Assembly (NCBI GenBank): GCA_945865665.1 | Contig: CAMBEE010000001.1 | Span: 71,874 to 135,873 of the forward strand | Origin: an uncultured Clostridium sp. | Lineage (GTDB): Bacteria; Bacillota; Clostridia; TANB77; CAG-508 | Direction of reading: 5' to 3' | DNA length: 64,000 nt | Shown: piece after piece, positions 383 through 24,394 of the stretch | How positions within the stretch are numbered: the stretch's first letter is position 1 | Layout of the letters: every line of letters starts with the position of its first letter | Notes under the pieces: model-generated | What the model saw: only the letters and a program-made list of their open reading frames with translations | Told to the model about the DNA's origin: nothing | The model's database searches: none | Translations under genes and position numbers: made by a program

Positions 383-570
383 TAAGGTATTATAATTCTA
401 GAATATATCTAACATATAGTGTGAACCAGTAGTAGATGAAGAATATAATAAATTGCTATAAGAAAATTGACAAAAATTGCATTTTTTTTTCAAAAAAGCT
501 ATTGCAAAATAAGAATTTTTTTGATATAACAGTTTTGAAGGAAAAAGGTATAGTTTTTAAGGAGGAAGTT

Positions 571-2214: not shown

Positions 2215-2251
2215 ATTATAATAAATTAAATTTTTGAAGAAAGGAGCAAAA

Positions 2252-5200: not shown

Positions 5201-6058
5201 AATATGCCAATTTCAAATTATAATTTAAAATATGATTTAAATGGCGACGGAAAAATTGATGACAAAGACATTGTTACAATTCAAAAGCAAGTAACCTTAA
5301 ATAAAGAAAATAATTGGTCTAACACATGGAAAAACTTACCATTATATATTGATGGAAAAAAAGCAATATATTCAGTAAGAGAAGTACAAATAGGAGACAT
5401 AAAAGCAGTTACAAATGGCCAATATAATTCAGAAAAGGGAACATGGGAAAGTTATGATGCATATACACAATATAGGGCACATACAACTGAACAGAAAGAA
5501 ACAACTGACTCAAATGGAAATGTAACACAAGTTTCATTTGATTTAGTAAACACGATACATTTAGTAAAAATAAATATAAACAAAATTAGTCCATTAGGAT
5601 TGCCAATTGATGGTGTAAAATTCAGATTACAAAAAATAGATGATTTAGGAAACATAGATTCTACATTTGAAGCTAAAGAGCTTGTAACTTCATTAGATGG
5701 AAAGTTAAGCTTTGTTGATTTAGAATATAATACAAAATATGTAATAACAGAAATTGAAGGTAATAAGGGATATTATCTTGACAGTACACCAATTTATGTA
5801 ACAATAAATAAAGGTGAACAAGGGCAGGAAGATACTTTAACTTTATATAAAGACAATACATTTGAGGAAGAAGCACAAAAAGGCAACTATGAGTATGTGT
5901 CATTAAACGAATCAAAAGACACATTGAATATTATTAATATTTCACATACACCAATGCCAAAGGCTGGAGGATGTGGTGTTTATGGTTTTTACATTTTGGG
6001 TATTATTCTAATGGGATGCTCAATAATTATAATATATTTAAGAAAAAATAAAATATAG
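2252..6058 (+). CDS. Large surface/pilus tip adhesin (about 1270 aa) with CnaB-type isopeptide domains, a dockerin-like Ca-binding motif and a non-canonical C-terminal sorting signal
   Basis: RBS AAAGGAG before the ATG at 2252 (MNKAMTDIL...). N-terminal TM/signal anchor. CnaB-like segments (VTKVWQDVPEKYVKDVIVELYL, YVITEIEGNKGYY). Motif DLNGDGKIDDKD. The C-terminus is HTPMPKAGG followed by a hydrophobic TM and RKNKI, which is sorting-signal architecture without LPXTG. Confidence 0.7.
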   Translation: MNKAMTDILKNKRKTVLFVVLAIILVLATWYKLKVQGITMTEDASYEQVLVCKNSDVNHVHSAECYEKVAVTNQNEKENVVQEEKAKDTTDSKAEEQQTNKQNETSDQTSKTELKENTPETLNSEEIVKNADRNNRISTTALENVRHSEESDAVNLYVNIDNNWTLIGVLNQKTSKKGKKYISADDVTKLINKKLDISPNKASEFNLCYFVGTKNIFSMTNINKDKYNLGNDNLYIDAYITSNVTSEDAWRNGKNNFKVYSITEKTAENVPIDGTPKYVYATTNKPATYQLSDEHNYYVNNESEIKQAETQINISGPTVLKQVPVEKCTVTIVSVDGTVATKQVNKGSKFTLGSNLKWKVGDSTELTNGGTQITVNENITVTESNEIKINYTVDTSTTATNINARYKYDGIAIPTVQGSNTYSTTITYNSGTTTEQLSDKYVTPYNSAATVTKDRIILEFAGWKINGGSTVVNAQTELSWNELYSYAQNGEINFSTIWNHINNNKKYVNFYMRYDSVAVDTNGNITGQDANKYTPSLWASYVGNSDLARNIADTSSDNSYGANKAIRQLEGVKENSAYIYSIPTDEYILSQLKKYSNDLSIDGEKVSVDQLDLEHYEIRWYVFKNQPDCWHIDGKLVRKEGKMTVSKTFKGSKTAIEAVTGYSFDTKNSTNSRYHLEMKGGNAVATTTDLYLDSAKLEDKSTTQDGVTTYELKYTWEVNVKYGIHYTITEKNYNVDRYITNAVYNIVDPENTKYKKVYNSDGTYYYEKDSEGNFITTYENQSKGSTTADSANVIGVNNYAIDSGEVIDNSKLINVNFTNTYAPTSAITIKKDDSATNNGLANAQFSLYEVNNGNIDKNSPIKFTYNESIYKYNENGDKTVLTSPSGGSIILDNLPTGKTYKLVEISVPEGYDGNSSVEVTLTTQNDGVVVPVISKGTGKEYDDKNKVLEVDNASKLTEVKVTKVWQDVPEKYVKDVIVELYLNNMPISNYNLKYDLNGDGKIDDKDIVTIQKQVTLNKENNWSNTWKNLPLYIDGKKAIYSVREVQIGDIKAVTNGQYNSEKGTWESYDAYTQYRAHTTEQKETTDSNGNVTQVSFDLVNTIHLVKININKISPLGLPIDGVKFRLQKIDDLGNIDSTFEAKELVTSLDGKLSFVDLEYNTKYVITEIEGNKGYYLDSTPIYVTINKGEQGQEDTLTLYKDNTFEEEAQKGNYEYVSLNESKDTLNIINISHTPMPKAGGCGVYGFYILGIILMGCSIIIIYLRKNKI

Positions 6059-6074
6059 AAAGGAAAGTAAAAGG

Positions 6075-7583
6075 ATGAAAACATTTAAAAAATTATTTAC
6101 AGTTTTAGCAATTATTTTGTTTGCTATAATTTCATTATTACCAGCAAGAAGTTTATCTGCTGAAAACGACCTAACAATCACAGTAACAGGAGATGTAAAA
6201 GGTAGAACACTTTCTGTTTATAAATTATTTGATTTAACAGTAACAGGAACAGCTGAAAAACCAGTTTACAATTATACTTGGGCTGGAGCTTCAGAAAAAT
6301 TCTTTAGTGATAAAAAATATGAAACAGTTGCTAAAGCAACAGATTACTTAAAAGGACTTGAAAATAACTCAACAGCATTAACTACAATTGCTGAAGAATA
6401 TTACCAATATTGCAAAGATAATGGTCAAACAGCAATTGCTAAAAAACAAGGAATTGACACAACAGAAGCAGTATTCACTGTACCAGGTCAAGGATATTAT
6501 CTAGTTTATGATGAAACAGAAATAAATGAAACAGGTAGAGCTAGAGCTGCTGCTATGTTATCAAATGTTACAAAAAATGCAGAAGTAGCATTAAAAGCTG
6601 AGAAAACAACAGTTGAAAAAATGGCTGATAAAGCAACAGCAGCTGTTGGTGAAACAGTAAATTACACAGTAACATCAAGAGTTCCAAATGTAGTAGGATA
6701 TGACTCATACAAATTTATAGTAACAGATACATTATCAAAAGGATTAACATTAACTGACAATACAGTTGTTACAGTTACAATTGGTGGTGAAACATATACA
6801 GCTTGGACAAAAAATGTTACTCCTAACGATGGTGGTACAACAACATTAACAATAACATTTAATCCAACAGAATTTGCAAAATTAAAAGATAAAACAGGTG
6901 CAGAAATAAAAATTACATATTCTGCAGTATTAAATAATGATGCAGCAACAATCTTAGATAACACAAACGAAGTAAAAATTGAATATTCAAACAACCCAAC
7001 AACAGATGGAACAGGAACAACAAACACAGATGTAATTCACGTTTATACATACAAAATTGACTTCACAAAGAGAAATACAGCTGGAGTAGCATTACCAGGA
7101 GCAAAATTTGTATTAAAATTATCAGATGGAAAATTTGCAACATTTGATGAAAAAGGTGTATTTACAGGAACAGTTGCAACAAAAGAAGAAGCAACAGTAT
7201 TAACATCAGATGATAATGGTAATATTGCAATATCTGGATTGAAAGCTGGAACATATACATTAATAGAAACAGAAGCACCATCAGGATATAGCGTTCCAAA
7301 CTTTGAATTTGTATTTACAATTAGCCAAAAATTAGATGAAAATGGAAAATTAGAAACAGCAACATTTGACTATAAAACAGATGAAAATCTTAAAGCAGCT
7401 AAAGGATATATGACAGATAAAACAAATACATCAGCTTCATTTGCAATAGAAGTATTAAATGCTAAAGAAGGATCATTACCAACAACAGGTGGAATTGGAA
7501 CAACAATATTTACAGTTGCAGGTATAGCTGTAATGGCTGTTGCAGTTGTAGCATTAGTTGCTCACAATAAAAAAAATGATTAA
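6075..7583 (+). CDS. Major (backbone) pilin, LPXTG-anchored
   Basis: Signal peptide. E-box YTLIETEAPSGY. Pilin-motif-like VIHVYTYKIDFTKRN with a conserved Lys. C-terminal LPTTGG followed by a TM and HNKKND. RBS AAAAGGA. Confidence 0.8.
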   Translation: MKTFKKLFTVLAIILFAIISLLPARSLSAENDLTITVTGDVKGRTLSVYKLFDLTVTGTAEKPVYNYTWAGASEKFFSDKKYETVAKATDYLKGLENNSTALTTIAEEYYQYCKDNGQTAIAKKQGIDTTEAVFTVPGQGYYLVYDETEINETGRARAAAMLSNVTKNAEVALKAEKTTVEKMADKATAAVGETVNYTVTSRVPNVVGYDSYKFIVTDTLSKGLTLTDNTVVTVTIGGETYTAWTKNVTPNDGGTTTLTITFNPTEFAKLKDKTGAEIKITYSAVLNNDAATILDNTNEVKIEYSNNPTTDGTGTTNTDVIHVYTYKIDFTKRNTAGVALPGAKFVLKLSDGKFATFDEKGVFTGTVATKEEATVLTSDDNGNIAISGLKAGTYTLIETEAPSGYSVPNFEFVFTISQKLDENGKLETATFDYKTDENLKAAKGYMTDKTNTSASFAIEVLNAKEGSLPTTGGIGTTIFTVAGIAVMAVAVVALVAHNKKND

Positions 7584-7652
7584 TAAGTAAAAAACTTAAA
7601 TATATTATAAAAATAGATATAGATAAACAATACAGACTGAAGGAGGAAAAAG

Positions 7653-8513
7653 ATGAAAAAGAAATTCAACATAAAAAAACAATTACCTAATATCATATTA
7701 GCAATCGTATTTATTGTTGGTCTTTGCATATTTTTATATCCTTCAGTCAGTGATATAATAAATTCATGGCTTCAAAGCAAAGAAATCAGTAAATATGAAA
7801 ACCTTGTAGCAGGCTTATCAACTGAAGAATATGATAAAATGCTATCAGATGCAAGAGAATATAACAAGAAATTAGTAGGAAATAATTTAACACAGAACAT
7901 AGAAAAATCAAAAAATACAAATTATAACCAACTACTTTCTCTAGATAATACGGGAATAATGGGATATTTATATATAAGTAAAATAAATGTTAGATTACCA
8001 ATATATCATGGAACAGATGCATCAGTTTTACAAAATGGTATTGGACATTTAGAAGGTTCATCATTACCTGTTGATGGAGAAACACAACATGTAGTTATAT
8101 CAGGACATACGGGACTACCATCATCAAAATTATTAACTGATTTGGTTGAGCTAGAAGTAGGTGACACATTTAAGTTAGACATACTTAACCAAAGATATAC
8201 ATATGAAGTAGATCAAATACTTGTAGTTGAGCCAAATGAGACCGATGCATTAGAATTAGTAGAAGGTAAGCAATATGCAACAATAATTACATGTACTCCT
8301 TATGGAGTAAATACACATAGACTATTAGTTAGAGGAAAACTTAAAGATGAAACTGTAGATGCTAACATTTCAGGAGATGCAATAATAATAAATTCTAAAA
8401 CATTAATACCAATAATTTCAATTCCGTTAATTATAATCTTATTTATAATTATGATTAGTATAAGAAGAAAAAGAAAGGAAAGGGAAATAGATGAAGAAGA
8501 TAATATTAAGTAG
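7653..8513 (+). CDS. Class C (pilus-polymerising) sortase
   Basis: N-terminal TM anchor. Catalytic His (ISGHTG), TLxTC motif IITCTPYG, conserved Arg (HRLLVRG). C-terminal TM lid. RBS GAAGGAGG. Confidence 0.85.
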   Translation: MKKKFNIKKQLPNIILAIVFIVGLCIFLYPSVSDIINSWLQSKEISKYENLVAGLSTEEYDKMLSDAREYNKKLVGNNLTQNIEKSKNTNYNQLLSLDNTGIMGYLYISKINVRLPIYHGTDASVLQNGIGHLEGSSLPVDGETQHVVISGHTGLPSSKLLTDLVELEVGDTFKLDILNQRYTYEVDQILVVEPNETDALELVEGKQYATIITCTPYGVNTHRLLVRGKLKDETVDANISGDAIIINSKTLIPIISIPLIIILFIIMISIRRKRKEREIDEEDNIK

Positions 8514-9144
8514 TTTAATTTTTATAATACTTGTAGCTAGTTTAGTTGGAACAGTATTAGCTGTAAATTTGGGGACGATTCAATTTGTGGCAATAGATAA
8601 TACTGACTCAAAAACAATAGAAAATTTAGAAGTTTCAGTATATCAAGTAAGTACACAAGATGAACAGGGGAATTTTAAATTTGCAGCTGGATTTGAAAAT
8701 TGTACATTAAACATAGAGGACTTATCAGAAAGAAATTTACAAAATTTAAAAGAATATGCAAAAGCAAATGCAAATCCAGTATCTATAAAAACAACTAATT
8801 CAAATGGTAAATTCAGTTTGAATAATTTAGATTTAGGAGTATACTTATTTGTACAAGAAAACAAAGAAAACGAAATCACTATGCAAACAATGTTAATCTC
8901 AATTCCTGAATTGAATAAAGAAAATGGCTTGAAATATAATGTTACAGTAAAACCTAAAATACTAAACAAAGAAATAGTAGATAAAAATGAAAACCAAAAA
9001 AATAGTACACTAGTACAAGATGACAAACTGCCATATACAGGAGTTTTAAATTGGCCTATACCTGTTCTTGTAGTTGTAGGAATAGTTATTTTTTGTATAG
9101 CCTGGCTAAAAGTTTACGGTACATCTAAAAAAAAAGTAAAATAG
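8491..9144 (+). CDS. Small LPXTG pilin (minor/basal pilin candidate), signal is LPYTG
   Basis: Signal peptide. C-terminal KLPYTG followed by a TM and KKKVK. The start overlaps the end of the sortase gene, implying translational coupling. Confidence 0.6.
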   Translation: MKKIILSSLIFIILVASLVGTVLAVNLGTIQFVAIDNTDSKTIENLEVSVYQVSTQDEQGNFKFAAGFENCTLNIEDLSERNLQNLKEYAKANANPVSIKTTNSNGKFSLNNLDLGVYLFVQENKENEITMQTMLISIPELNKENGLKYNVTVKPKILNKEIVDKNENQKNSTLVQDDKLPYTGVLNWPIPVLVVVGIVIFCIAWLKVYGTSKKKVK

Positions 9145-9155
9145 GCATATTTTTT

Positions 9156-9752
9156 ATGATATTTGCTGTCTTGATGTTAGCTAGTGCAGGAATATTATTA
9201 TTATACAACTCATCAGAAGATACAAGAGTTGAAGATGATAACCTAGAAACAGTTACACAATTAGAAAACATTTTAGAAAAGCAAAATGATAATCAAAATA
9301 ATGTGCAAAATTCAGAAAAAACAGAGAATACTGAAAATAATGCTATATCTTTAAATAATAATAGGACAAGTATTAACATTAAAGGAAATAACTATATTGG
9401 AATTATCTATATACCAATATTAAATAATCTTGCTTTGCCTGTTATAGAAGATTGTACAGTAGATAACTTAAAAATATCTGTATGTAGATATTCAGGAAAT
9501 ATTAATGAAAATAACCTTGTTATTGCAGGACATAACTATAAATCATCTTTTGGAAAACTTTCAAGACTTACTGTTGGAAATCTTGTATATTTTAAAGATG
9601 TTAATGGAAATGTATATAAATATCATTGCAAAGCAATTGAAACCTTATCTCCTAAGTCTGTAAATGAAATGATAACTGGAGATTGGGACTTAACTTTATT
9701 TACTTGTACCTATAATGGTGCTAATCGTATTGCATATAGATTTGAGTTGTAA
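9156..9752 (+). CDS. Sortase, second copy (small class B/D-like transpeptidase)
   Basis: N-terminal TM. Catalytic His (LVIAGHNY), Cys (LFTCTY) and Arg (RIAYRFEL). No obvious RBS. Confidence 0.7.
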   Translation: MIFAVLMLASAGILLLYNSSEDTRVEDDNLETVTQLENILEKQNDNQNNVQNSEKTENTENNAISLNNNRTSINIKGNNYIGIIYIPILNNLALPVIEDCTVDNLKISVCRYSGNINENNLVIAGHNYKSSFGKLSRLTVGNLVYFKDVNGNVYKYHCKAIETLSPKSVNEMITGDWDLTLFTCTYNGANRIAYRFEL

Positions 9753-9809
9753 AGTAGAACTTTTAAAATAGGAAAATATTATAAAAAGCATAATTTAAAT
9801 ATTATTAAG

Positions 9810-9845
9810 AGGTTAATGTGAGAAGTTATCCTCTTTTTTATTACC
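9810..9845 (+). terminator. Putative rho-independent terminator of the pilus operon
   Basis: Stem aagagg...cctctt followed by ttttttatt directly after the last sortase gene. Confidence 0.4.
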
Positions 9846-10001
9846 TAAAAAAGCACAATTTGCAATTATATAAGAGAAGTGATGAGAAATACATAGCTGA
9901 CATTTGGTTCAGAATTTATAAAAGAATATTACCAAACAACTGTTTACAAAATAAAAATAAAGTGATATAATACAATTAAAGTTTATTTTAGGAGGTGGAA
10001 T

Positions 10002-10957
10002 ATGCAGAAGCAAAATATATATGTAGCAATAGATTTAAAAAGTTTTTATGCTTCAGTAGAATGTCGAGAAAGAGGATTAAACCCTCTAACAACTAATCTG
10101 GTAGTAGCAGACAGTAGTAGAACAGAAAAAACAATATGTCTTGCTGTAAGTCCATCTCTAAAACAATATGGAATACCAGGAAGAGCAAGGCTATTTGAAG
10201 TAGTTCAAAAAGTAAGAGAAATAAATACAAATAGAAGATATAATGCACCTGGTCATATATTAAAAGGAAAATCTTATGAAGACATAGAACTAAAAAAACA
10301 TCCAGAATATGAACTAGATTATATTATAGCACCACCTCAAATGAAAAAATATATGAAGTATAGCACTAATATATATAATATTTATCTAAAATATTTTTCT
10401 CCAGATGATATATGTGTTTATTCCATAGATGAAGTTTTTATTGATGTAACACATTATTTAAAAACCTATCAAATGAAAGCAAGTCAATTAGCCACAAAAG
10501 TTATACATGATATATATAAACAAACTGGAATTACAGCAACTTGTGGAGTAGGAACAAATCTATATCTTGCAAAAATTGCAATGGACATAGTAGCAAAACA
10601 TGCACATGGTACGATAAATTTAGACCATAAAACTTCATCGAATAAACTTATTGGTGAATCAGTTATGAAATTATATAATAGAATAATTGATAAGCGTTTA
10701 TTAACTCGGAGAATTAATATAACTGCAAATAATGTAATTAGTGAAGAACAGGCTGAAAAAGAAAATAAATTTGAACAAATTGATTTATTTACTGATTATT
10801 CAGAAGTAGAAAGAAAAAAAAGAGCAAAATCTTCAAAGATCTATACTAGATATAAAGAAAAAATATGGTAAAAACGCAATTCTAAAAGGAATGAATTTTG
10901 AAGATGGAGGAACAACAATAGAAAGAAGTGAACAAGTAGGAGGTCATAAAGGTTAAT
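10002..10957 (+). pseudogene. Y-family (UmuC/UvrX/ImpB-like) translesion DNA polymerase, degraded
   Basis: The N-terminus YVAIDLKSFYASVECRE is the Y-family palm motif. The protein is far shorter than the about 420-aa norm. A +1 frameshift lies inside an A8 run (10813-10820); the shifted frame continues as KKYGKNAILKGMNFEDGGTTIERSEQVGGHKG, the typical family C-terminus. A promoter TTACAA-17-TATAAT lies upstream at about 9943-9971. Confidence 0.6.
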
Positions 10958-11193: not shown

Positions 11194-11454
11194 TTAAATA
11201 TTATCAATAAAATCAGAAACTAAATCTTCAAGTTTAACATTAAAAACTTTAGCAAAACCACATAATTCATAATCAACAACAGTTCTTTTTCCAGTTTCAA
11301 TTTTATAAATCTCTTGTTTATGAATATCAATTCCGTGAAGCATAAGCTTGTCTGATAAACTTTGATATGAATAATTATTTAATTCACGATAATATCTAAT
11401 CTTATCCTTAACAATATTAAGACTATTTTCGATATTTGTATTTCTTTTACTCAT
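11194..11454 (-). CDS. XRE-family helix-turn-helix transcriptional regulator
   Basis: RBS AAGGAG before ATG (MSKRNTNIENSL...). HTH segment SYQSLSDKLMLHGIDIHKQEIYKIETGKR. A hairpin with a T-run lies about 30-90 nt downstream on the - strand. Confidence 0.65.
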   Translation of the reverse strand: MSKRNTNIENSLNIVKDKIRYYRELNNYSYQSLSDKLMLHGIDIHKQEIYKIETGKRTVVDYELCGFAKVFNVKLEDLVSDFIDNI

Positions 11455-11616
11455 ATTGAAAACTCCTTTTTTACTTATTTTTCCACATTGCATTGATTTT
11501 ATAATATAATTTTGATAGAATATAACCCACAGAGGTTATATATTATTTATGTTACAAGTTTCGACAAATTTTTAAGATACAATTGTTATAAAATTGAATA
11601 AGAAAGAGGTCAAAAA

Positions 11617-11883
11617 ATGGAAAAAATAAAAGTAATAATTGCAGATGATATACAAGCTATTGTAGAAAGTAATAAACGAATTGTTGCATCATTTGATAAT
11701 GTTGAGGTTATTGTGACTGCATACAATGGCCAAGATGAGTATGAGATGATAATAAACTTACAACCAGATTTTGTAAGCAATAGAAGAGAGGTAGAAGTAG
11801 ATATGGAAAAGTGTAAAAAAAAGAATACAGAACATTGCACAAAATCAAAGTTTTGTGCAAAAAGGAATAGGAGTAAAATATAA
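11617..11883 (+). pseudogene. Truncated response-regulator receiver-domain fragment
   Basis: MEKIKVIIADDIQAIVE...IVTAYNGQDEYEMIINLQPDFV is a CheY-like receiver N-terminus. It runs into repeat R1 after about 60 aa. There is no output domain. Confidence 0.5.
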
Positions 11884-12731
11884 AACCATAGTTATATGGT
11901 CCTACCCATGAAATCTTGCTACTCCTTTAATAAAGCCTATTTTAGCATCTTATACTAACAACAAACTATACTACTTTTATATAAAAACCTCTTAAAATTG
12001 ATTCTGAAGCTTCATTAATTTAGCTTTTACTTGGTTGGATTTTTTTTCATTATTGTAACTACATATTTTCAAAAAAATTTTATATAACTTTAGATTATTT
12101 TATCAAAATTTCACAAATCCCCATATTTCAGTATTTTGCTTGATTTTGCAGACAACAAGTTATATGCCTTAAAAATAAAAACGCCTTAAAATCGATTCTC
12201 GTGCGTCACTTTTTTAGCCATTTTTAAGCATTTTTAATAAATGCCTAAAAATCAGCATTTCTACTTAAATAATATAATAAATATTAGTTTTTTTAATTTA
12301 CACATCTAATTTAAAACATATAACTTGTTAAATAAAATATTAAAATGTCTTAAAATCTATTTTGACGTGTCATAAATATAAAATTATATTATGGATTTGT
12401 AATCTAAAATTATATAATAGTTATTCAAAAATTTTTATAAAATTATAATGAAAAATTTATTTACAAACATTTTTAACAAATGTTCGTTTTTTAAAAATTA
12501 ATAATAAAAATTCACTTTACACAAAATTTTTAAATTTTTAATTATTAGATTTTAATTATAAAATTTTTTAAAATTCTAATTCTAAATTTTAATATTAATT
12601 TTTTGAAAAATTTTATTTTATATCTTTTAATAGTATAAAAAATTTCTTTATGTATTTATTTTTTTGTTTTAAAATTTATTTAAAATTTCTATTTTTGTAT
12701 TTTCTCAAAAATAGCCTATTCCCCTATTCCC
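11846..12731. repeat. Non-coding repeat module A (R-box + three degenerate about 60-bp units + about 400-bp unit)
   Basis: Homologous at about 75-90% to 13486-14208. It ends with ctcaaaaatagcctattcccctattccct. The units share cttaaaatcgattct. Confidence 0.8.
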
Positions 12732-12795
12732 TATTGATTTTTCTACGTATAGTAATTATTATTTATTGTTCTTCATTCTATTTATAAGTATGTTA

Positions 12796-12822
12796 AAAGA
12801 GATGGTACTACCATCTCTTTTA
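12796..12822 (-). terminator. Bidirectional rho-independent terminator
   Basis: aaaagagatggtactaccatctctttt is a perfect 10-bp stem with A/T runs on both sides, 3' of the 12864-13286 gene. Confidence 0.6.
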
Positions 12823-12863
12823 GTCTGAGTTAATTAAATATTATCTATTGAAGTTGAAATTTC

Positions 12864-13286
12864 TTATACTCCAATAAGATAAGTAAAAATTTGACCTTCT
12901 ATATACCTGTTTGAAAATGCAAAGTCATGATTCTTATCTAGAAGATATTTTAATTTAAGTTTATGCTGTTTACAGAATCTTTGCATATCTTTATGTGTAA
13001 TATGTAATTTAGAGCCATTTTCTAGAATGATATATTTATTAGCATTATCTGTTGGACATAACATACAAGGAGAAGCGAGATCTATACTAATAAATTTTCT
13101 TCTTCTAAAACCTATTTTTCTATAAGGTTTAGAAGAAAGTTCAATTAACAAATTGCTAATATACTTCTCAATTATATTCCAATCTTCTGGTGACCGAATT
13201 AGCTTTTTTTCTTCCTCCTTACGTTTTTCCTTTTCTAATTGTTCATGTTCTCTTAACTCAACTCTTAATTGTTTTCTTAAATTCAT
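12864..13286 (-). CDS. Hypothetical protein with a CxxC...HxxH...CxxH zinc-finger/HNH-like motif
   Basis: RBS AAGGAGG 8 nt before ATG. Contains SPCMLCPTD...HITHKDMQRFCKQH. Charged coiled-coil N-terminus. Flanked by repeat modules A and B. Confidence 0.45.
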   Translation of the reverse strand: MNLRKQLRVELREHEQLEKEKRKEEEKKLIRSPEDWNIIEKYISNLLIELSSKPYRKIGFRRRKFISIDLASPCMLCPTDNANKYIILENGSKLHITHKDMQRFCKQHKLKLKYLLDKNHDFAFSNRYIEGQIFTYLIGV

Positions 13287-13485
13287 AAAAAAACCTCCTT
13301 TAAATGTTGTATTTACAAAAGTGATAGTTATATATTAACACATTTTACATAATATTTCAATATAAATCAATTAAACTTCACATTTTTAGTATCTAATATT
13401 AAACTTAATTTCACATTTTATATATTGTTTAAGTGAATTTTTTATAAAAATTTTAGAAATTCAAAACAAGTTTTTGGTTTGTATT

Positions 13486-14208
13486 ATCAAAGTTTTGTGC
13501 AAAAAGGAATAAGGGTAAAAATACAGACCTCGCATTTAGGTCCTACCCAGTACTTTCTAGGCCTTCTAGCCATTAATACATATATTATTACTATTATTAT
13601 CTTATTATTTAATATTGCATCTTTTTTTATCTAATGTTATTCAACATCTTATATTACTTTATATATTTATCATTTATTTATTTTTAATCCTTAAATTTTA
13701 AATTTATATCTTAATATTTTTTATAATTTCAGATCCTATCTTATAATTTTATCAAAATTGCTCAAAACGCCTAAATGTCCATATTCGACGTATTTTGCAG
13801 ACAACAAACTTGTTTGATTAAATATAAAAATGTCTTAAAATCGATTTTAACGTGTCATAAATATAAAATTATATTATGGATTTGTAATCTAAAATTATAT
13901 AATGATTATACAAAAAAATTATTAATTTATAATGCAAAAATTTATTTACAAACAATTTTAACAAATGTTCGTTTTTGAAAATTACATATATAAAATTAAC
14001 TTTACACAAAATTTTAAAATTTTTAATTATTAGATTTTAATTATAAAATTTTTATAAATTCTAATTCTAAATTTTAATATTAATTTTTTGAAAATTTTTA
14101 TTTTTATCTTTTAATCATATAAAAAATTTCTTTATGTATTTATTTTTTGTTTTTAAAATTTATTTTAAATTTGTATTTCCTCAAAAATAGCCTATTCCCC
14201 TATTCCCT
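13486..14208. repeat. Non-coding repeat module B (R-box + unit + about 400-bp unit), a direct repeat of module A
   Basis: Module A is at 11846-12731. The same end motif cctattcccctattccct is present. Confidence 0.8.
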
Positions 14209-14235
14209 ACTTGTGATATATATTTAATTATAAAA

Positions 14236-14272
14236 AAACTGAGAATATCCTTTAATATTCTCAGTTTTTTAT
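14236..14272 (-). terminator. Bidirectional rho-independent terminator
   Basis: aaaaaaactgagaatatcctttaatattctcagtttttt has a 10-bp stem with a T-run. Confidence 0.6.
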
Positions 14273-14301
14273 AAAACCTAAAAAGCATCTAATATTGTAT
14301 A

Positions 14302-14688
14302 TTAACTTATGAATTTTATTTTTGCACCACATTCGCAGCAACTATGTTCATATGTATATACATAAGCATAGCATATTGGACAATGATAATGTCCTTCTTC
14401 ATCTTTTTCTTCTACACAGTATTCTTCTTGTTCATCTTTCATAATGTTTTCATACAATTTTTCGGCTTCTTTTTTCTCTTGTTCAGTTACTGGACTACAA
14501 TCTTCAAAATCTTTAAAAAAGGATTCTAATTCAGTATTATTATCAAGTAAAACTTTTTTAGCTTTAGGGTATAATTTCATCCATTGTCTTAATGTTTTCT
14601 TAGAATTTGAAAATTTTGTTAATATTTTTATGTCGATACCAATTGCCGATTTCGTTTCCTTTTTTATAATTCCTAGATATTTATCCAT
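14302..14688 (-). CDS. Hypothetical acidic protein with a C-terminal zinc ribbon
   Basis: Ends with HCPICYAYVYTYEHSCCECGAKIKF. No family assigned. It is the last gene of a - strand string that follows the toxN-family gene. Confidence 0.45.
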   Translation of the reverse strand: MDKYLGIIKKETKSAIGIDIKILTKFSNSKKTLRQWMKLYPKAKKVLLDNNTELESFFKDFEDCSPVTEQEKKEAEKLYENIMKDEQEEYCVEEKDEEGHYHCPICYAYVYTYEHSCCECGAKIKFIS

Positions 14689-14707
14689 AATATATTTACC
14701 TCCTTAA

Positions 14708-14929
14708 CTAATCAGTTTTCGAGTTGTTATTAAAGGTATTATTAAAATACCAACATGCCCATGGGATATATACAATGCTAATTCCTATTATTTTACTTGT
14801 GTCAAAAGGACTATTCAATTCAATTGGCACAATATAAACTACTGTAAGATATAACATTACTAGTCCCATATACATCAGAAATTTGTGCATAAAATTATTA
14901 TACTGTTTACTCATATTTTCCTCCTCCAA
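14708..14929 (-). CDS. Small 2-TM membrane protein, hypothetical
   Basis: Its only long ORF is closely packed between its neighbours. Hydrophobic segments LMYMGLVMLYLTVVYIV and IIGISIVYIPWACWYF. Confidence 0.35.
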   Translation of the reverse strand: MEEENMSKQYNNFMHKFLMYMGLVMLYLTVVYIVPIELNSPFDTSKIIGISIVYIPWACWYFNNTFNNNSKTD

Positions 14930-14944
14930 TATTAATTGCGTTGT

Positions 14945-15154
14945 CTACAGGTTACTCTTTACAACATCATCTTGAAAATTTTCACGTGCCATATTGAATT
15001 GGTCTGTATTTTGTTTAGTCTTTTCTCTAATTGCTTTATCCAATTCTTCCATACGAGCAGATGATACTGGTATTCTTGCTTTAGGTGGTGTACGAGATAC
15101 AGCTGACATGTAATTTAGTTTTACTTTTTTAATAGGTGTTTTCTTTTCTGACAT
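14945..15154 (-). CDS. Small basic protein, hypothetical (possible DNA-binding/RHH-like)
   Basis: 69 aa with a Lys/Arg-rich N-terminus and MEELDKAIREK. GGAGG upstream. Confidence 0.4.
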   Translation of the reverse strand: MSEKKTPIKKVKLNYMSAVSRTPPKARIPVSSARMEELDKAIREKTKQNTDQFNMARENFQDDVVKSNL

Positions 15155-15349
15155 ATTTATTCCTCCTTAAAATAATAATTTTACAATAGTTGCTTTATAA
15201 TAAAACTATGATGAAAAATAGGAAAGTAAAAATTCAATTAGCTTTTAGCTAAGATTTATGTGAATTATATCATTATTTGAGCTAAAAGTAAAGATAAACA
15301 CAATATGTATCCATTATGTGTTTATTTTCTTTCTTACTATATCATATAT

Positions 15350-15841
15350 TTATTTGATCGTTAACTGTTCTAATATTCCATCAATATCAGGAAAAATAAT
15401 ATTTTTCATTCCATGATTATATAAATTTAAAACCTTAGTAGCTTTATATATTATTTCTTCTTGCAATTTGTTTGACAGTTTTATAACAACTTTATTTTTT
15501 ATATATTGACTTTCTATATATTCCTCTGTTACTGGAAACATATTTTGTATTAAGAAAGCACTGTATGTATTTGCAACATTTCCAAAAACAATAGTATCAA
15601 TTGAAGGTTTCTTTCCTAATTTTATTTGTTTTTTTATTTTATTATCATAGATTCTTTGATACTTATCTACTTTTGTACTAACAGGAATAAACCAAATAAT
15701 ATTATTATATTCTTTACTTTTAAAGCAATAATAGCATGGTCTTTTATTTCCATTTTCTTTATTTTGCATTAGTTCTGGATCATCTATAACATCAAAAAAC
15801 GAATCTTTAATAAAATAAAAACATCCTATATCTATTTGCAT
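15350..15841 (-). CDS. ToxN/AbiQ-family endoribonuclease toxin (type III toxin-antitoxin / abortive-infection family)
   Basis: 163 aa. RBS AAGGAG 9 nt upstream. My alignment to AbiQ/ToxN is from memory: FYFIKDSFFDV..NKRP..IIWFIPVSTK..IDTIVFGNV..LIQNMFPVTEEYI against MKFYTI..FD.KV..RP..APLSSPK..GVINLNNMIPV. Preceded by tandem repeats and a hairpin. Confidence 0.6.
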   Translation of the reverse strand: MQIDIGCFYFIKDSFFDVIDDPELMQNKENGNKRPCYYCFKSKEYNNIIWFIPVSTKVDKYQRIYDNKIKKQIKLGKKPSIDTIVFGNVANTYSAFLIQNMFPVTEEYIESQYIKNKVVIKLSNKLQEEIIYKATKVLNLYNHGMKNIIFPDIDGILEQLTIK

Positions 15842-15868
15842 ATTTATATTACTCCTTATATTATGAGA

Positions 15869-15890
15869 GGCTTACCATTTCTGGTAAGCC
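15869..15890 (-). terminator. Hairpin between the repeat array and the toxin gene (leaky terminator / processing element candidate)
   Basis: ggcttacca-tttc-tggtaagcc is a perfect 9-bp stem with a 4-nt loop. There is no strong U-tract. Confidence 0.4.
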
Positions 15891-15897
15891 CCAATTA

Positions 15898-16006
15898 ATT
15901 TATTCACTCTCTCATTTGTTAGTCGCTCAAAGAGGCGGCGACAAATACATTTATTCACTCTCTCATTTATAACTCGCCAAAGAGGCGGCGACAAACACAT
16001 TTATTA
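15898..16006 (-). ncRNA. 2.2 tandem 51-nt direct repeats: candidate ToxI-like antitoxin RNA of a type III toxin-antitoxin system
   Basis: atttattcactctctcattt(gttagtcgctc/ataactcgcc)aaagaggcggcgacaaa(t/c)ac occurs twice, followed by a partial atttatt. Each unit contains a GC-rich hairpin gtcgc...gcgac. It lies immediately upstream of the toxN-like gene on the same strand. Confidence 0.5.
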
Positions 16007-16094
16007 AAAACAATGATGTTCTTAATTATTATATTCATAATAGCATGAAATATGTTACTTTGTCAATAATTTTAATAAATTTTCTTTTTAAAAG

Positions 16095-16160
16095 CAGAAC
16101 AACAATTTGGTTTGTATTATCAAAGTTTTGTGCAATAAGAGATAGGAGCAAAAATTGTTA
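16095..16160 (-). promoter_or_regulatory. R-box copy R3 (shared with R1 at 11846 and R2 at 13486); a promoter/leader for - strand transcription of the repeat-toxin unit is likely
   Basis: tttggtttgtattatcaaagttttgtgcaa is shared with R2. The reverse complement contains ttgcacaaaactttgataatac, a -10-like GATAAT. Confidence 0.35.
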
Positions 16161-16249
16161 TAATTTGTGTGATAACTTGTAATTTATCGAGATGATTGTA
16201 ACATAAAAGTTAGATATTTTCAAATCAATATATAACTTTCTAAATTTTA

Positions 16250-17686
16250 TTATGCATGTATAATATTTGTATTCTTTGAAATTTCACTATTAGTTGTTAC
16301 AATATCATAATTACTCAAATTATGAATATCCTTGTTTCCTGTTATTCTTGCAAAAGTTTTTAATTCATCATTTACAACATTAAAATAATTCTCTAACCTT
16401 TTACTGCTTTTTTCAATATTTAATCTTTTTCTTAATTCTGAATCTTGTGTTCCTACTCCTACCGGACACATTCCATTATTGCAAACTCTGTACTGTTGGC
16501 AAGCAATTGCCATCATTGCAGCTGTTCCAATAGCGATAGCATCTGCTCCCATTGCAATTGCCTTAGCAAAATCTGATGAAGTTCTTAGTCCTCCCGTTAT
16601 GACAAGTGATATATCTTCTCCATGCTCATCTAAATATTTTCTTGCTCTATATAGTGCATATATTGTAGGTACTGTTGTTGCATCTTTTATGATTTTAGGG
16701 CTTGCACCTGTTGCACCACCTCTCCCATCTATTGTAATAAAATCCGGCTTTGCAAAACAAGCAAATTCTAGATCCTCTTCTATATGTCCTGCTGCAAATT
16801 TCACACCAATTGGTCTTCCTTCTGATTTTTCTCTTAATTCATCTACTAGAGATTTTAAGTCTTCTTTTGTTTCAATCTCTTTAAATTTAGATGGACTAAT
16901 AATATCTTCTTCTACTTTTTTACCTCTTATTTTTGCAATTTCTTCTGTTACTTTTTCTCCGGGTAGGTGTCCTCCCATTCCTGGTTTTGTTCCTTGACCT
17001 ATTTTAATCTCTATTGCACTTACCTTTTTTAAGTTTTCATCCGTAACACTATATTTATTTGGCACATATTCAAAAATATATTCATAAGCATTTTCAAATT
17101 CTTCTGGTAATATTCCACCTTCTCCGCTACATATTGCTGTTTTTACATTTTTCGTTCCTATGGCCAAGGCTGTTTTGGCTTCCTTTGATAATGCACCGAA
17201 AGACATGTGTGTTACAAATACAGGTGTTTCTAAAATCATTGGCTTTTTCGCATTTTTACCAATTACTGTTCTTAGACTAACTTCTTCATCCTCAAAAAGT
17301 GGCATTTTGCTAAGTTGTCCACCTAGAATTAGAATATCATTCCAGCTAGTTACAGGTAACTTTGTTCCCATTGCTGAAATAATACTTTTTCCTGTAATAG
17401 CCATTGTATGGATATCTTCCATTCTTTGTTCTACTTCGTCTGTACTACGAGTATATTCTTTTAAATAGTTTTCTAGCTTATTTTCATTCTTTCTTGTTTC
17501 TTCTTTAGATTCTACTTTTTCTTCTTGTTTTGCATCTTCTTCTACTAATTTAAACATATTCTTTGGTGCAAAACACATTGGACATTTCCAATCATCTGGT
17601 AAGTCTTCAAATTTAACTCCCTCTTTTTCTTCATCATAAATATGTCCACATAATTGACATTTATATTTAGCCATTTTTTCCTCCAT
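16250..17686 (-). CDS. Rubredoxin-fused glutamate-synthase-domain (FMN/Fe-S) oxidoreductase
   Basis: N-terminus is rubredoxin ([11 protein letters not shown]...WKCPMC). The remainder is a GltS FMN-binding domain ([28 protein letters not shown]). Confidence 0.75.
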
Positions 17687-17702
17687 TTTTAATTTCTATA
17701 AG

Positions 17703-17730
17703 AGATACAAAAAGGTATCTCTTATTTTAC
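17703..17730 (-). other. Intercistronic perfect hairpin between rbr and the downstream oxidoreductase gene
   Basis: taagagatac-aaaaag-gtatctctta is a 10-bp perfect stem. The T-run is only on the + strand side. Confidence 0.35.
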
Positions 17731-17737
17731 TAATATA

Positions 17738-18277
17738 TTAATAATTTTCTGCTTTTATTTCAAAATATGCTTTTGGATGACTACAAACTGGGCAAATTTC
17801 TGGTGCTTCTTTACCAATTACAATATGTCCACAATTTCTACATTTCCAAATTTTATCTCCATCTTTAGAAAATACTAACCCATCTTCTACATTTTCTAAT
17901 AATTTTTTATATCTTTCTTCATGTTCTTTTTCTATCTTTCCAACCGCTTCAAATAAATATGCTATTCTATCAAATCCTTCTTCCTTTGCTTCTTTTGCCA
18001 TTCTATCATACATATCTGTCCATTCAAAATTTTCTCCTTCTGCTGCTGCTTTTAAATTTTCAGCTGTAGATGGTATATCTTCATCATGTAATAGTTTAAA
18101 CCATAATTTAGCATGTTCTTTTTCATTATCTGCTGTTTCTTGGAATATTGCTGCTATTTGCTCATATCCTTCCTTTTTAGCTTTGCTTGCAAAATAGGTA
18201 TATTTATTTCTTGCTTGTGATTCTCCTGCAAATGCCTCCATTAAATTTTTTTCTGTTTTTGATCCTTTTAATTCCAT
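17738..18277 (-). CDS. rbr: Rubrerythrin
   Basis: Ferritin-like diiron domain ([18 protein letters not shown]) plus a C-terminal rubredoxin-like CxxC...CxxC (WKCRNCGH...CPVCSHP). Confidence 0.85.
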
Positions 18278-18280
18278 TTT

Positions 18281-18679
18281 TTATTCCTCCTCATACTTTA
18301 TTTTAGATTTACATTCTTCACATATTCCATATAAAATGATACTGTCTACATTAGTAATTACACTCGTTTGATTATGGATCAATTCTTTTAGTTTTTCCTT
18401 CTTAAACTGATACATAAAATCAAAAACTTTTCCACATTTGTTGCATATTACATGATAATGTTCTTTATCAATATAATCATATTTGTCTGGTCCAGTTAAT
18501 ACTTTTATTTTCTTGATAGTTTTATTTTCCAATAAAACATTTAAATTTCTATAAACTGTACTTTTACTAATAGTTGGATTATCTTGATGTACTTTATCAT
18601 ATATTTGTTCCGCTGTTGGATGATTTAAATACTTAAATGTTTCTAGTATAATTTCTCTTTGCTTAGAATAGTTATTCAT
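18281..18679 (-). CDS. perR: Fur-family peroxide-responsive repressor (PerR-like)
   Basis: Fur family fold: DNA-binding helix STVYRNLNVL, HYHVICNKCGKV, and C-terminal CEEC. Located upstream of rbr. Confidence 0.75.
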   Translation of the reverse strand: MNNYSKQREIILETFKYLNHPTAEQIYDKVHQDNPTISKSTVYRNLNVLLENKTIKKIKVLTGPDKYDYIDKEHYHVICNKCGKVFDFMYQFKKEKLKELIHNQTSVITNVDSIILYGICEECKSKIKYEEE

Positions 18680-18693
18680 GTATCCCCTTTCTA

Positions 18694-18714
18694 AATTAGG
18701 AATTATTCCTAATT
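18694..18714. promoter_or_regulatory. 10-1-10 perfect palindrome (Fur/PerR-box-like operator) in the perR promoter region
   Basis: AATTAGGAAT-T-ATTCCTAATT lies 15 nt upstream of the perR start. Confidence 0.45.
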
Positions 18715-18949
18715 TTGTTTTATTTTATATTATTTCATATAGTTTGTCAATAACTTTATGATTATTATTACTCAATTTTTTATAATTAGAAAGATAATTT
18801 GAGCGATAACTTACTATTATTTGAGATGATTATACCATACTATTTCTGCTTTGTTTCCACTAACTGAAACAAATATGCATCAAAAGTTTTTTCTGTTACA
18901 GAAGTGTAAATATATACAACATCATTTTCATTTCCTTGTCTAGGTCCGT

Positions 18950-19252
18950 CTACCGATTTCTTTGAGTTAAATCTGAAGGTCGCCACGGACAGTCTAAATG
19001 ATGAAGTGCAATTATTTTATTTTGGCAGTTTGTTCCTGCTCCCATTTTTGCAGTAGATCCCATTAAAACTCTTATATTTCCTGCTCTTACTTTTGAAAAT
19101 AATTCTTGTTTTTGAGTATCATTATTTGCATCATGTATAAACGCAATTTCGTTTTCTGGTATTCCTTTTTCAATTAATTTTCGTTTTAAATCTGTATATA
19201 CACCTGTAAATTTCCATTCTTTTAGTTTCCATTTTCTGTCTACAAGTTCCAT
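18950..19252 (-). pseudogene. C-terminal fragment of an SNF2/DEAD-like helicase (helicase motif VI region)
   Basis: IRVLMGSTAKMGAGTNCQNKIIALHHLDCPWRPSDLTQRNR. No upstream catalytic core is in frame. Confidence 0.45.
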
Positions 19253-19341
19253 CTCATATCATAAACAAATCAGAACTTTTTTGTGCTTCAGTTTGGGCTA
19301 TTCCTCCAACATTACGCATTTTCGTGTATAAATATAGATTT

Positions 19342-20028
19342 TTAAAACCGATGCGCTTCATCAACAAATAATTTATCTGTTCTTCTGCTATTATCTTGTA
19401 ATTGTTCATTAGACCTACCCATTTCATTTAGTCTTTCATTTTCAATTTCTCGTTTACTCCATCTTGTTTCGCCATTTTCTCTACTATTTGTTTTATCATT
19501 TTCGTTGCTTGTTCTTGTATTTGTGATAGATGTAAAGCTAATTCGTTGTTCATCACTAATATTGTGTATTCTGCTTTCTTCTGTGTTTTTAGATAATGTA
19601 GTCTCATTTTTGCGTATTTTCCATCTGGAATCTTCTCCCTCTCCATTGTTAGATTTGGTATATTGTAATCTCCTACTTTCGTGTATGTTATTTTCTTCAT
19701 AATCAATTTCTCCTTCAATTTTTTCTCTAGCATTAATATTGCACCTTGTCATCATCATATATGAAACACTTGCCCATACACAAGGAACATACAAACTATA
19801 TAGTTCATCATCTGTATATTGTTCAAATTGAGTTCCTTTAATGTATTTTTTTATAGATGACATATAATCTTGAATATTATCAGTTACCATATTATAAGCA
19901 TTACGAATAAAATCATATTTGAAATTCCAACTACTACTATCTAAAAATGAGAGCAAATTTTCTTCTGTTTTAGTTACTTCCAATAATGTTTCTTTATATA
20001 ATTTTCTTGTTTCTGTTATTCTTCCCAT
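19342..20028 (-). pseudogene. N-terminal part of the same large helicase-type protein, carrying frameshifts
   Basis: The frame ends with LFVDEAHRF (motif II DEAH). The middle of this frame is junk-like. An overlapping frame (19428-19733) encodes a protein-like segment MKKITYTKVGDYNIPNL..., implying at least two frameshifts. Confidence 0.45.
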
Positions 20029-20711: not shown

Positions 20712-21191
20712 TTACTTTTTTACTTTTTTCTTATAATCATAAATTAATGTACCAACAAATAATATAGCAGATAATCCGCCAATTAAAGCAAATATTCCTG
20801 TATGTCTATCATCTCCTGTGTTTGGCACTTCGATTATATCATTTTCAAAATTAATGTTATATATTGAATCATTTTCTGCTATTAAATCCCCATCAACAAA
20901 TACCCCATTATCATTTATTTCAATATTTACTACTTTATTTGATAATTCATATCCAGCTGGTGCTTTTAGTTCTTTTATATAATATTTTCCATATCGTAGT
21001 TCTTCAAATATAACATATCCATCATTTTTATTTGATTTTACTTCTTTTATCAAATTATTACATTCTTCATCTTCATAGATTCCAAATACAAATTTTTCTT
21101 TTATTAATTCTTTGGTTTTACTATCTATTTTATTTAGTTTGATATTTTTTAATATCGGCATCTCTTTCTTCTTGTGTTGTAAAGAAATCAT
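20712..21191 (-). pseudogene. C-terminal fragment of a sortase-anchored surface protein (CnaB/SpaA-like domain + VPNTG sorting signal) lacking a signal peptide
   Basis: FVFGIYEDEE...YIKELKAPAGYEL is a CnaB-like segment. The C-terminus is VPNTGDD, then a TM, then KKKVKK. There is no N-terminal hydrophobic signal. The start overlaps the parA stop. Confidence 0.5.
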
Positions 21192-22396: not shown

Positions 22397-22543
22397 TTAT
22401 AAATTATCAATATGCTTAAAAACTTCATCTAAAGAATATATTTTATTTGATTTTATATCATCTAAACCTTGTTGTAACTTGCTTTTCAAATCATTTTTAT
22501 CTCTAATTATTACATTTTCTGGAGTATACTCATAATTTAACAT
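22397..22543 (-). CDS. 48-aa ORF with a strong RBS; possible small antitoxin-like protein
   Basis: GGAGG 7 nt before ATG. MLNYEYTPENVIIRDKNDL...KIYSLDEVFKHIDNL. Directly downstream of the Doc/Fic fragment. Confidence 0.3.
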   Translation of the reverse strand: MLNYEYTPENVIIRDKNDLKSKLQQGLDDIKSNKIYSLDEVFKHIDNL

Positions 22544-22560
22544 ATTGTTTACCTCCAATT

Positions 22561-22851
22561 TTATTCATTATTCAAAAAATTCACCACTAAATCTATAATT
22601 ACTTCTTTTTCCTTTGGATTCGATTCAGCAATTAATAAAGTAAGAGCCGTTAATGTATTATTATCAATTACTTGTTTACCGTTTTTATATAATATTCCGT
22701 AAAAATTTAGAAAATATATAAACAAAGTTGCTGCAATTCTTTTATTGCCATCTGCAAATACATGATTTTTTACTATTAAATATAAGAAATTTGCTCCTTT
22801 TTCTTCTATACTCTTTTTATCAGCAAATTCGGAATTTCCGAATTTAGTCAT
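22561..22851 (-). pseudogene. Fic/Doc-family (death-on-curing toxin-like) fragment
   Basis: The Fic motif HVFADGNKRIAAT lies only about 30 aa from the start (normally about 65). The N-terminus is missing. There is no space for an upstream antitoxin. Confidence 0.5.
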
Positions 22852-22927
22852 AGTTTCTTTTTTTATTCCTTGGTTTTCAAATAAAATAATTTAATTTCTT
22901 TTTTCGTCCATAAGAACACATCCCTTA

Positions 22928-24268: not shown

Positions 24269-24394
24269 ATTATCACCTTCAGCATTAGTATATCACATTT
24301 TTTACATTGTTTTTCGACAAATTATCACATTTTCTTATATAATTTAAAAGTATGTATAAAAAGCAAAAATTTATATATTTTATAAAAGACTCTT

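Follow-up and report, generated by a model that had tools for sequence, protein, structure and literature searches.

Integrative mobile elements exploiting Xer (IMEX) are integrase-less elements whose integration regenerates a functional site at one junction (PMC5357621). The dif sites themselves are recognized by a symmetric-arm anatomy, by their single copy, by their position at the terminus and, in single-recombinase systems, by a linked Xer gene (PMC5357621). The locus described here lies in a 64,000-nt stretch, hereafter the window, of a contig from an uncultured Clostridium sp. (assembly GCA_945865665.1, contig CAMBEE010000001.1, positions 71,874 to 135,873), with ~25% GC across its length. 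It consists of repeated units, called cassettes, each made up of a site, a 0.7-0.9 kb non-coding module, a terminator and minus-strand cargo with its own promoter, followed by the next site. With a probability of about 65%, this is a tandem array of integrase-less cassettes at a non-canonical dif-like site of the replication terminus, comparable to IMEX and to cis-mobilizable elements (CIME). The same site is also an attachment site for many mobile elements in a clade of AT-rich uncultured gut Clostridia. In the accretion-mobilization of CIME and integrative and conjugative elements (ICE), as for ICESt3 of Streptococcus thermophilus, integrase-less elements are flanked by direct att sites and form tandem arrays.

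The array resembles the IMEX, such as CTXphi, VGJphi, TLCphi and the gonococcal genetic island, in that it has no integrase and is arranged in tandem at a palindrome of the terminus. In the element site, likewise, one arm is good and the other degenerate, the central region matches, and hybrid sites separate the arrays. By contrast, the host of the window belongs to the Firmicutes/Clostridia, the core is non-canonical and nearly perfectly palindromic, and the cassettes measure 1.6-2.7 kb, with one to a few genes and a non-coding arm of 0.4-0.9 kb, whereas IMEX are phage genomes or large islands. Furthermore, the autonomous relatives of the window cassettes carry their own Xer-like integrase together with a small partner protein. 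With CIME the locus shares the direct flanking att sites, the use of one site together with autonomous relatives and the building of arrays by successive integration, but its target is a terminus palindrome and not the 3′ end of a gene, and its cassettes, which retain a large conserved arm, occur with 99.5% identity across species. The near-symmetric arms with AAAA/TTTT at the inner positions, as well as an Xer-family gene linked to the site, recall XerS/difSL and XerH/difH (PMC5357621), although the window-type recombinase (327-332 aa) scores best as XerC/XerD and not as XerS, and the core is a different one. Small gene units that lie between recombination sites, move from one replicon to another and carry accessory or defence genes are also found in integrons and in the pdif modules of Acinetobacter. 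Unlike an integron, the window array lacks an integron integrase, attI and attC, and its cassettes have their own promoters; unlike pdif modules, which are reported to alternate, its sites are in direct orientation, and the array is chromosomal and lies at the terminus. Three features are novel relative to known IMEX and CIME: the host lineage, the sequence of the core, and a conserved non-coding arm of large size.

The core site

The units of the array are joined by the R-box, a 26-nt pattern that is present exactly three times in the window (11844, 13486 and 16119, all on the + strand; 0 expected by chance). The first-pass annotation of this DNA had recognized the three shared copies, but placed the third at 16095, a start that takes in the left flank common to sites B and C. 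The R-box comprises the central region and the right arm, plus ~20 nt of flank, of a 28-bp palindromic site, ATTGCACAAAA|TCAAAG|TTTTGTGCAAW, in which 11-bp arms surround a 6-bp spacer (11-6-11), the arm/spacer layout of dif-type sites, which span ~28-31 bp and have a central region of 6-11 bp between two inverted arms to which the recombinase binds. In other loci (numbered with L), most R-boxes are preceded by ATTGCACAAA, which completes the palindrome. Within the window both arms are present only in copy A, the full (F) site (11834-11861, no strand assigned; ATTGCACAAAA TCAAAG TTTTGTGCAAA). The other two are hybrid (H) junctions, namely site B (13476-13502, + strand), with the degenerate left arm GGTTTGTATT, the core ATCAAAG and the right arm TTTTGTGCAA, and site C (16109-16153, + strand), with the arm GGTTTGTATT, the core and the R-box extension, but with no module after it. 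Sites A, B and C are all in direct orientation, and no additional sites or left-arm-only junctions were found elsewhere in the window.

The left flank of the full site is formed by the L-box (11777-11833, + strand; GAAGAGAGGTAGAAGTAGATATGG...AAAGGAATACAGAAC), a conserved purine-rich stretch that the window has in common with L015, L024, L084, L099, L116 and L167, and whose homology begins at about 11777. A truncated response-regulator receiver N-terminus (11617-11775, + strand; MEKIKVIIADD...LQPDFV) precedes it and diverges where the L-box starts; the fragment has no Pfam match, and the rest of the gene was not found in six frames of the window. The R-box itself is not the 3′ end of a disrupted gene, as had been considered, because it is half of a palindrome and the disrupted gene stands beside the site, not inside it. 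An earlier description of each R-box as lying 90-200 bp upstream of a − strand gene does not apply to A, which abuts the + strand response-regulator fragment. Similarly, the GATAAT −10-like element that was noticed at the R-boxes is present at B and C, where the core meets GGTTTGTATT, but absent at A, and has no usable −35.

The distribution of the site was surveyed by a scan with one genome per species; the surveyed genomes are fragmented metagenome-assembled genomes (MAGs), and all locus and site counts refer to the matches listed, hence are lower bounds. The R-box was found in at least 120 loci, nearly all of them from MAGs of uncultured gut Clostridia. The matches listed include 79 F and 54 H sites, the left arms of the latter clustering in recurrent families, e.g. 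the GGTnnCCATT type. In these fragmented MAGs no locus or assembly has more than one F site among the matches listed, and the F site precedes the H sites in all multi-site loci (7/7).

Position at the terminus and the linked Xer gene

The GC skew was tested at F sites with at least 1.5 kb of sequence on either side, which left 28 testable sites (loci other than the window give only ±3 kb of context). At 27 of these the skew changes from +0.19 to −0.21, a terminus-type switch, whereas the same switch is seen at just 1 of 21 H sites. In the window the cumulative GC skew has its maximum at 11-12 kb, and the genes of the whole 64 kb converge there. In many species the DNA to the left of the site is conserved chromosomal sequence, and rho is found there in 45 loci. 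The right-hand backbone contains MgtC, a penicillin-binding protein (PBP) and an Xer-family recombinase. This tyrosine recombinase (27880-28878, + strand; 332 aa) is encoded in the chromosomal backbone, adjoins the PBP gene and is the candidate enzyme for the site. Among the NCBIfam models it scores highest against XerC (242 bits) and XerD (220 bits), without reaching the equivalog cut-off of either. L025, L050, L076 and L093 have orthologues of 68-75% identity within a few kb of the site, and the synteny of the Xer region is kept in L165-L172. As a general figure, the conserved Xer-family gene is 6-12 kb from the site; in the window it is 12 kb from the end of the array, and in other loci it is 1.7-7 kb away. 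No exact-protein records were found for the products of 27880-28878, 16250-17686 and 11194-11493, and no tRNA or tmRNA is present as an integration target. Because the site has an 11-6-11 anatomy, occurs in at most one full copy per assembly among the matches listed, lies at the terminus and is linked to an Xer gene, we infer that the site behaves as a non-canonical dif, closest to the single-recombinase systems with near-symmetric sites.

Exchange of cassettes between species

Left and right flanks reassort precisely at the core, such that one left flank occurs with different modules and one module family (21 sites) is joined to 19 left-flank clusters, of F and H types alike. Cassette 1 (window 12178-13419) recurs at 90-97% identity in the metagenome contigs L148-L153, where it is followed by the same arm and core, but by a different downstream element. 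Cassette 2 (13483-16153) has counterparts in L166 and L168 that match it along 2671 bp with 99.4-99.5% identity, although the chromosomal backbone is just 80-87% identical; in both loci it forms part of a four-cassette array with neighbours that differ from those of the window. Cassettes that are 99.5% identical across species are not old debris. In L171 the 99.5% identity begins at 13807, at a conserved box within the module, which indicates that the modules themselves are mosaic. The cassette architecture suggested by the first-pass annotation is thus borne out, since the units are bounded at the recombination core and recur intact, at 99.5% identity, in other arrays and species. A module is present to the right of the F site in all F sites with enough sequence (43/43), but is absent at 14 of 39 H sites. 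At site C of the window the R-box extension is followed, 14 nt on, by a 2.65-kb segment (16174-18820), and as this segment is promiscuous, the absence of a module there may be due to a later insertion instead of marking where the array originally ended. The right-hand arrays of L166, L167 and L168 are identical to each other, while their left flanks are different.

Autonomous relatives

The core is also used by phages and by a conjugative element. In temperate phage contigs an H-type site is followed within 250-450 bp by the gene of a 93-97-aa protein and then by that of an Xer-like integrase, a lysogeny layout that is the same in L121, L122/L123 and L141. L121 encodes a holin, an endolysin and tail-like proteins, and its spacer between int and the att core contains a block with the AAAATCGATTTT box, which is described below as part of the modules. 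In at least ten species an F site with a module of ~850 bp is followed by the same small protein and by two tandem Xer-like recombinases, while in L173 the small protein and an integrase fragment are found at the end of a conjugative element with relaxase and coupling protein. Furthermore, L166 carries Phage_CRI, a filamentous-phage-type replication gene, ~1 kb from the F site. The small partner protein has 479 homologues and no Pfam domain, and arms of the module A type lie directly beside its gene in L001 and L107. The window cassettes are non-autonomous members of this family of site-specific elements.

A mirror arrangement, with the order integrase, small protein and F site, accompanied by inverted module-like blocks, is found to the left of the F site in L021, L015, L024, L084, L116, L125, L054 and L102, and L021 has recombinase sets on both sides of its F site. 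At 2200-2560 of the stored L021 sequence, and also in L011, L023, L058, L060 and L095, a conserved GC-richer non-coding block of ~230 nt precedes the two tandem recombinase genes; a promoter-like region borders it on one side and the ribosome-binding site of a small open reading frame (ORF) on the other. The block contains GTCATAGTTCGAGCGT...GCGTCCCAAGC, shows compensatory changes in 11 of 33 predicted pairs (5 sequences) and has no Rfam match at E≤1, so that it could represent a structured leader of a kind not yet described. L102 has a c-di-GMP-I riboswitch (5681-5767, − strand; 81.6 bits) in the cargo to the right of the site.

Anatomy of the modules

Modules A (11844-12733, + strand) and B (13486-14209, + strand), the non-coding arms of cassettes 1 and 2, are homologous direct repeats 1.5 kb apart. 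Two homologous modules flanking a gene had been described before, and the direct repeats are real, with their boundaries now refined to these positions. The two are 89% identical over a distal 298-nt core, and both terminate in CCTATTCCCCTATTCCCTA, while module A has ~165 nt of additional box units (two extra) relative to module B. Two earlier observations stand: the modules, described as free of ORFs, have no ORF of at least 40 aa in common, and degenerate ~60-bp units around CTTAAAATCGATTYT are found in both, at 11991, 12185 and 12349 in A and at 13834 in B. Repeat, box and alignment analysis of module A gives the order R-box extension (AAAGGAATAGGAG), hairpin (11885-11900), AAAATCGATT-type boxes (11991, 12185 and 12349), ACAAATGTTCG, inverted core-arm copy (12517-12526) and C-rich end (12715-12733). 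In module B the corresponding parts are a hairpin that is terminator-like on the − strand (13525-13543), the box at 13834, the inverted arm copy (14002-14011) and the C-rich end (14191-14209).

Module homologues occur in more than 80 loci, so that the repeat is dispersed and not local to the window, and the homology ends precisely at the C-rich end. In a comparison set of 82 modules the order is conserved as core arm, R-box extension (AAAG-RR-ATAGGRG), hairpin, AAAATCGATTTT boxes, ACAAATGTTCG, inverted core-arm copy and C-rich end. The hairpin next to the R-box differs in sequence among families, but is kept as a hairpin and is terminator-like on the − strand. The AAAATCGATTTT boxes are palindromic and occur one to three times per module in 68 of the 82 modules, with a density of 2.1 per kb compared to 0.07 per kb in the control; they are directly repeated, 148 being on the + strand vs. 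22 on the − strand, and ~400 bp of DNA with 15-18% GC adjoins them. ACAAATGTTCG is present in 46/82 modules and the inverted core-arm copy, 600-900 nt from the core, in 38/82, while the C-rich end lies 0.5-1.0 kb from the core. The purine-rich boxes were also considered as genome-wide FtsK-orienting polar sequences (KOPS/SRS), a proposal that found no support: the k-mer skew is mostly general purine skew, GGAATAGG is restricted to the modules, and within 595 kb of flanking DNA the motif words occur only rarely. The purine boxes that face the site may nevertheless have a local role, as distinct from a genome-wide orientation of FtsK.

Cassettes and cargo in the window

From left to right, the window array consists of the F site, module A, a terminator, the gene of a 140-aa protein with its promoter, H site B, module B, a second terminator, three small genes, a CptIN type III toxin-antitoxin system with its promoter, and H site C. 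The cargo of cassette 1 ends in a bidirectional terminator-like hairpin (12796-12822; read from the sequence as AAAAGAGATGGTACTACCATCTCTTTT) and encodes the 140-aa orphan protein (12864-13286, − strand), which has no family in Pfam, NCBIfam, PADLOC or PHROGs, but has seven close homologues; its earlier labelling as Zn-finger/HNH-like finds no support in any of these four collections. Cassette 2, the transferable unit that spans the DNA between cores B and C and includes the R-box extension (13483-16153), has a terminator-like hairpin after its operon (14232-14271; read as AAAAAAACTGAGAATATCCTTTAATATTCTCAGTTTTTT), followed by three small genes with no assigned function (14302-15154, − strand; 128, 73 and 69 aa), the 128-aa product of which has a CxxC...CxxC motif at its end. 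The CptIN-family system (15350-16066, − strand) comprises the toxin gene (15350-15841; NCBIfam 1.6e-50, 170.8 bits against a cut-off of 90) and, preceding it, antitoxin RNA repeats (~15872-16005, with repeats of ~50 nt at 15893-16005; repeat families D11 and D13). The toxI-like repeats already recognized at this place therefore indeed precede a type III toxin. Upstream of them on the − strand lies the strongest promoter of the region (16066-16037), TTGACA-18-TATTAT preceded by TG. The cargo genes of the two intervals are unrelated to each other. No recombinase ORF or family match was found between 11844 and 16153, and BLASTN of 11500-16250 gave no match in plasmid and phage collections.

Proposed mechanism and alternative explanations

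An incoming circle would carry a good right arm, the module, a terminator, cargo with a promoter and a degenerate left arm. Its integration would rebuild a full site at the left junction, beside the module of the newcomer, and would leave a hybrid site at the right junction, so that repeated integration would yield the order F, module, cargo, H, module, cargo, H. Strand exchange would take place within the TCAAAG spacer, presumably catalyzed by an Xer-family recombinase, which could be the host enzyme (27880-28878) or an element-encoded one acting in trans. The module most likely serves as a cis-acting recombination arm, since it is always on the good arm, the same blocks are found between int and the core in a phage, and crossing over at the core would always bring the newcomer's module next to the restored full site. 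Such an arm would recruit the recombinase and accessory proteins, with the AAAATCGATTTT boxes, the inverted arm copy, and the purine and C-rich boxes as the parts that would be relevant for mobility, and the terminator-like hairpin would shield the core. It is possible, although on balance doubtful, that the array can be understood more broadly as an integron-like Xer/dif gene-cassette system, in which the module of 0.4-0.9 kb and not an integrase gene would be the determinant of mobility, and in which integrase-less, often defence-bearing cassettes would be captured, stacked and exchanged at the terminus by the single Xer of the host, with a non-canonical palindromic dif as its substrate.

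Several points weigh against a cassette array at a dif-like site. The function of the module as a recombination arm is proposed from its motifs, and the assignment of the host Xer as the putative catalyst for the window cassettes has to be set against the many users of the site with integrases of their own; since the relatives carry Xer-like integrases, catalysis in trans by these enzymes is equally possible. The core is unlike the canonical Firmicutes dif, and no dif of the B. subtilis type was found within 3 mismatches in the 64-kb window. Empty sites were encountered neither in two scans of metagenome contigs (0 hits) nor among the 43 F sites, and terminal repeats, as expected for a circular excision product, were present in 0 of 25 complete short contigs. 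The last module of L166 continues into chromosomal genes with no further junction, and no residual junction was found between this module and the chromosomal MgtC gene. Since the last module thus runs directly into the chromosome, a module may belong natively to the region around the site instead of being wholly element-borne. As for the empty sites, homologous recombination between modules of 0.7-0.9 kb could delete the cargo and leave one module, which could account for their absence.

The chief rival holds that the palindrome is not a site of dimer resolution, but a popular attB for elements with their own Xer-like integrases, the cassettes being decayed CIME-like remnants whose movement depends on the integration of a complete element at their side. 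This is a serious possibility, if a distinctly less likely one than a dif-like site: the phages, the ICE-like element and the two-recombinase element all have the core beside their own integrase and small partner protein, the module A-type arms adjoin the partner gene in L001 and L107, and the site is unlike the canonical Firmicutes dif. A mere attB, however, is difficult to reconcile with the location at the skew switch in 27 of 28 species, with the 11-6-11 dif architecture in at most one full copy per assembly among the matches listed, with the conservation of a backbone Xer gene nearby and with the filamentous-phage-type replication gene beside one F site, and the 99.5% identity across species does not fit old debris. 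Less probable is that the module acts as a cis-acting origin of the excised circle, be it for replication (iterons with AT-rich unwinding), for transfer (oriT) or for packaging, and that the cassettes are satellites using the Rep, relaxase or terminase of a helper. The directly repeated boxes (148 vs. 22) with the adjoining ~400 bp of 15-18% GC, the conservation across species of a region that has no coding capacity, and the existence of relaxase-bearing and phage relatives would agree with such an origin, but the window cassettes have no linked gene for a Rep, a relaxase or a terminase, the box of L121 is located between int and the att core, which is the usual place of a recombination arm and not of a replication module, and the module is always joined to the good arm.

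The remaining explanations concern the nature of the repeats themselves. A long non-coding RNA, proposed in the first-pass annotation, or a small RNA gene, e.g. with a ~400-nt transcript ending in the anti-Shine-Dalgarno-like C-rich CCUAUUCCCCUAUUCCCU, is improbable. Both strands fold better than shuffled sequences (z −4.3 and −6.1), and the R-box hairpin persists across families and is terminator-like on the − strand; on the other hand, the folding signal of 18% GC DNA stems mostly from A/T palindromes, promoter-like matches are near chance (59 vs. 46 ± 7 in shuffles), and the conserved blocks, among them the inverted core-arm copy and, with the strongest conservation, the palindromic boxes, resemble DNA to which proteins bind. 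No Rfam match was obtained for the whole window at gathering score or for the region at E≤1. The covariation check that had been proposed for a structured RNA found that the R-box extension does not covary with the C-rich end, the value being 7.61 for own pairs compared to 7.59 for mismatched ones. That the repeats arose by a recent tandem duplication in place, or that they form an array of integron cassettes, is very remote indeed, even though the direct repeats lie just 1.5 kb apart and the order repeat-gene-repeat is superficially integron-like. The modules and the site occur in at least 120 of the genomes listed, with cassettes 99.5% identical elsewhere, and the cargo between the repeats is unrelated, which rules out the local duplication that had been named as a possible refutation. 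For an integron, the integrase is missing, the scores of integron-integrase models stay far under the cut-offs, site A has no recombinase next to it, attC-type sites are absent and the cassettes have their own promoters and terminators.

Neighbouring loci

The 2.65-kb segment after site C (16174-18820) encodes Fur, rubrerythrin and a rubredoxin/glutamate-synthase-like protein, and is 99.5% identical in many unrelated contexts, its rubrerythrin being indexed in 4997 blocks of the collection. It has fixed ends, A[AC][AT]TTGTAATTTATCGAGATGATTG ... GAGCGATAACTTACTATTT, often adjoins genes for a large serine recombinase, Mob_Pre and TnpV, and looks like a promiscuous oxidative-stress cargo unit. 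It is followed by several short − strand ORFs with similarity to a helicase C-terminus (18840-20028), which are probably fragments of a large SNF2/helicase gene, i.e. a pseudogene. Two further stretches (20764-21149 and 22447-24288) are missing from L165, which is otherwise 98-99% identical, and represent strain-specific indels; the zone that holds them, rich in defence genes, separates the array from the chromosomal backbone. The second contains a RhuM-like fragment (PADLOC PDC-S23) and a DUF4143 ATPase (PDC-S01, 2.9e-147). On the other side, the stretch 436-10871 holds a pilus locus with SpaA-type pilins, an LPXTG anchor and two sortases, after which come a Y-family polymerase of reduced length (ImpB/UmuC type, 289 aa) and an XRE regulator. 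Many other species carry rho at this position, and the left flank of the window could itself have been acquired.

Implications

If the array is indeed a stack of integrase-less cassettes at a dif-like site, a non-canonical site of this type, together with its likely recombinase, would be at hand for a large, uncultured and abundant gut lineage, and integration at dif, which has been described mainly in Proteobacteria, would be extended to small cassette-like elements of Firmicutes. The terminus would then be a hotspot at which defence and accessory genes, such as the CptIN toxin-antitoxin system, restriction-modification genes and RhuM-like genes, are swapped between species as near-identical units. 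The non-coding module would be a concrete candidate for the cis element that makes integrase-less DNA mobile, and the 28-bp core with its flanks would provide annotators with a marker for the terminus and for the cassette boundaries in these MAGs.

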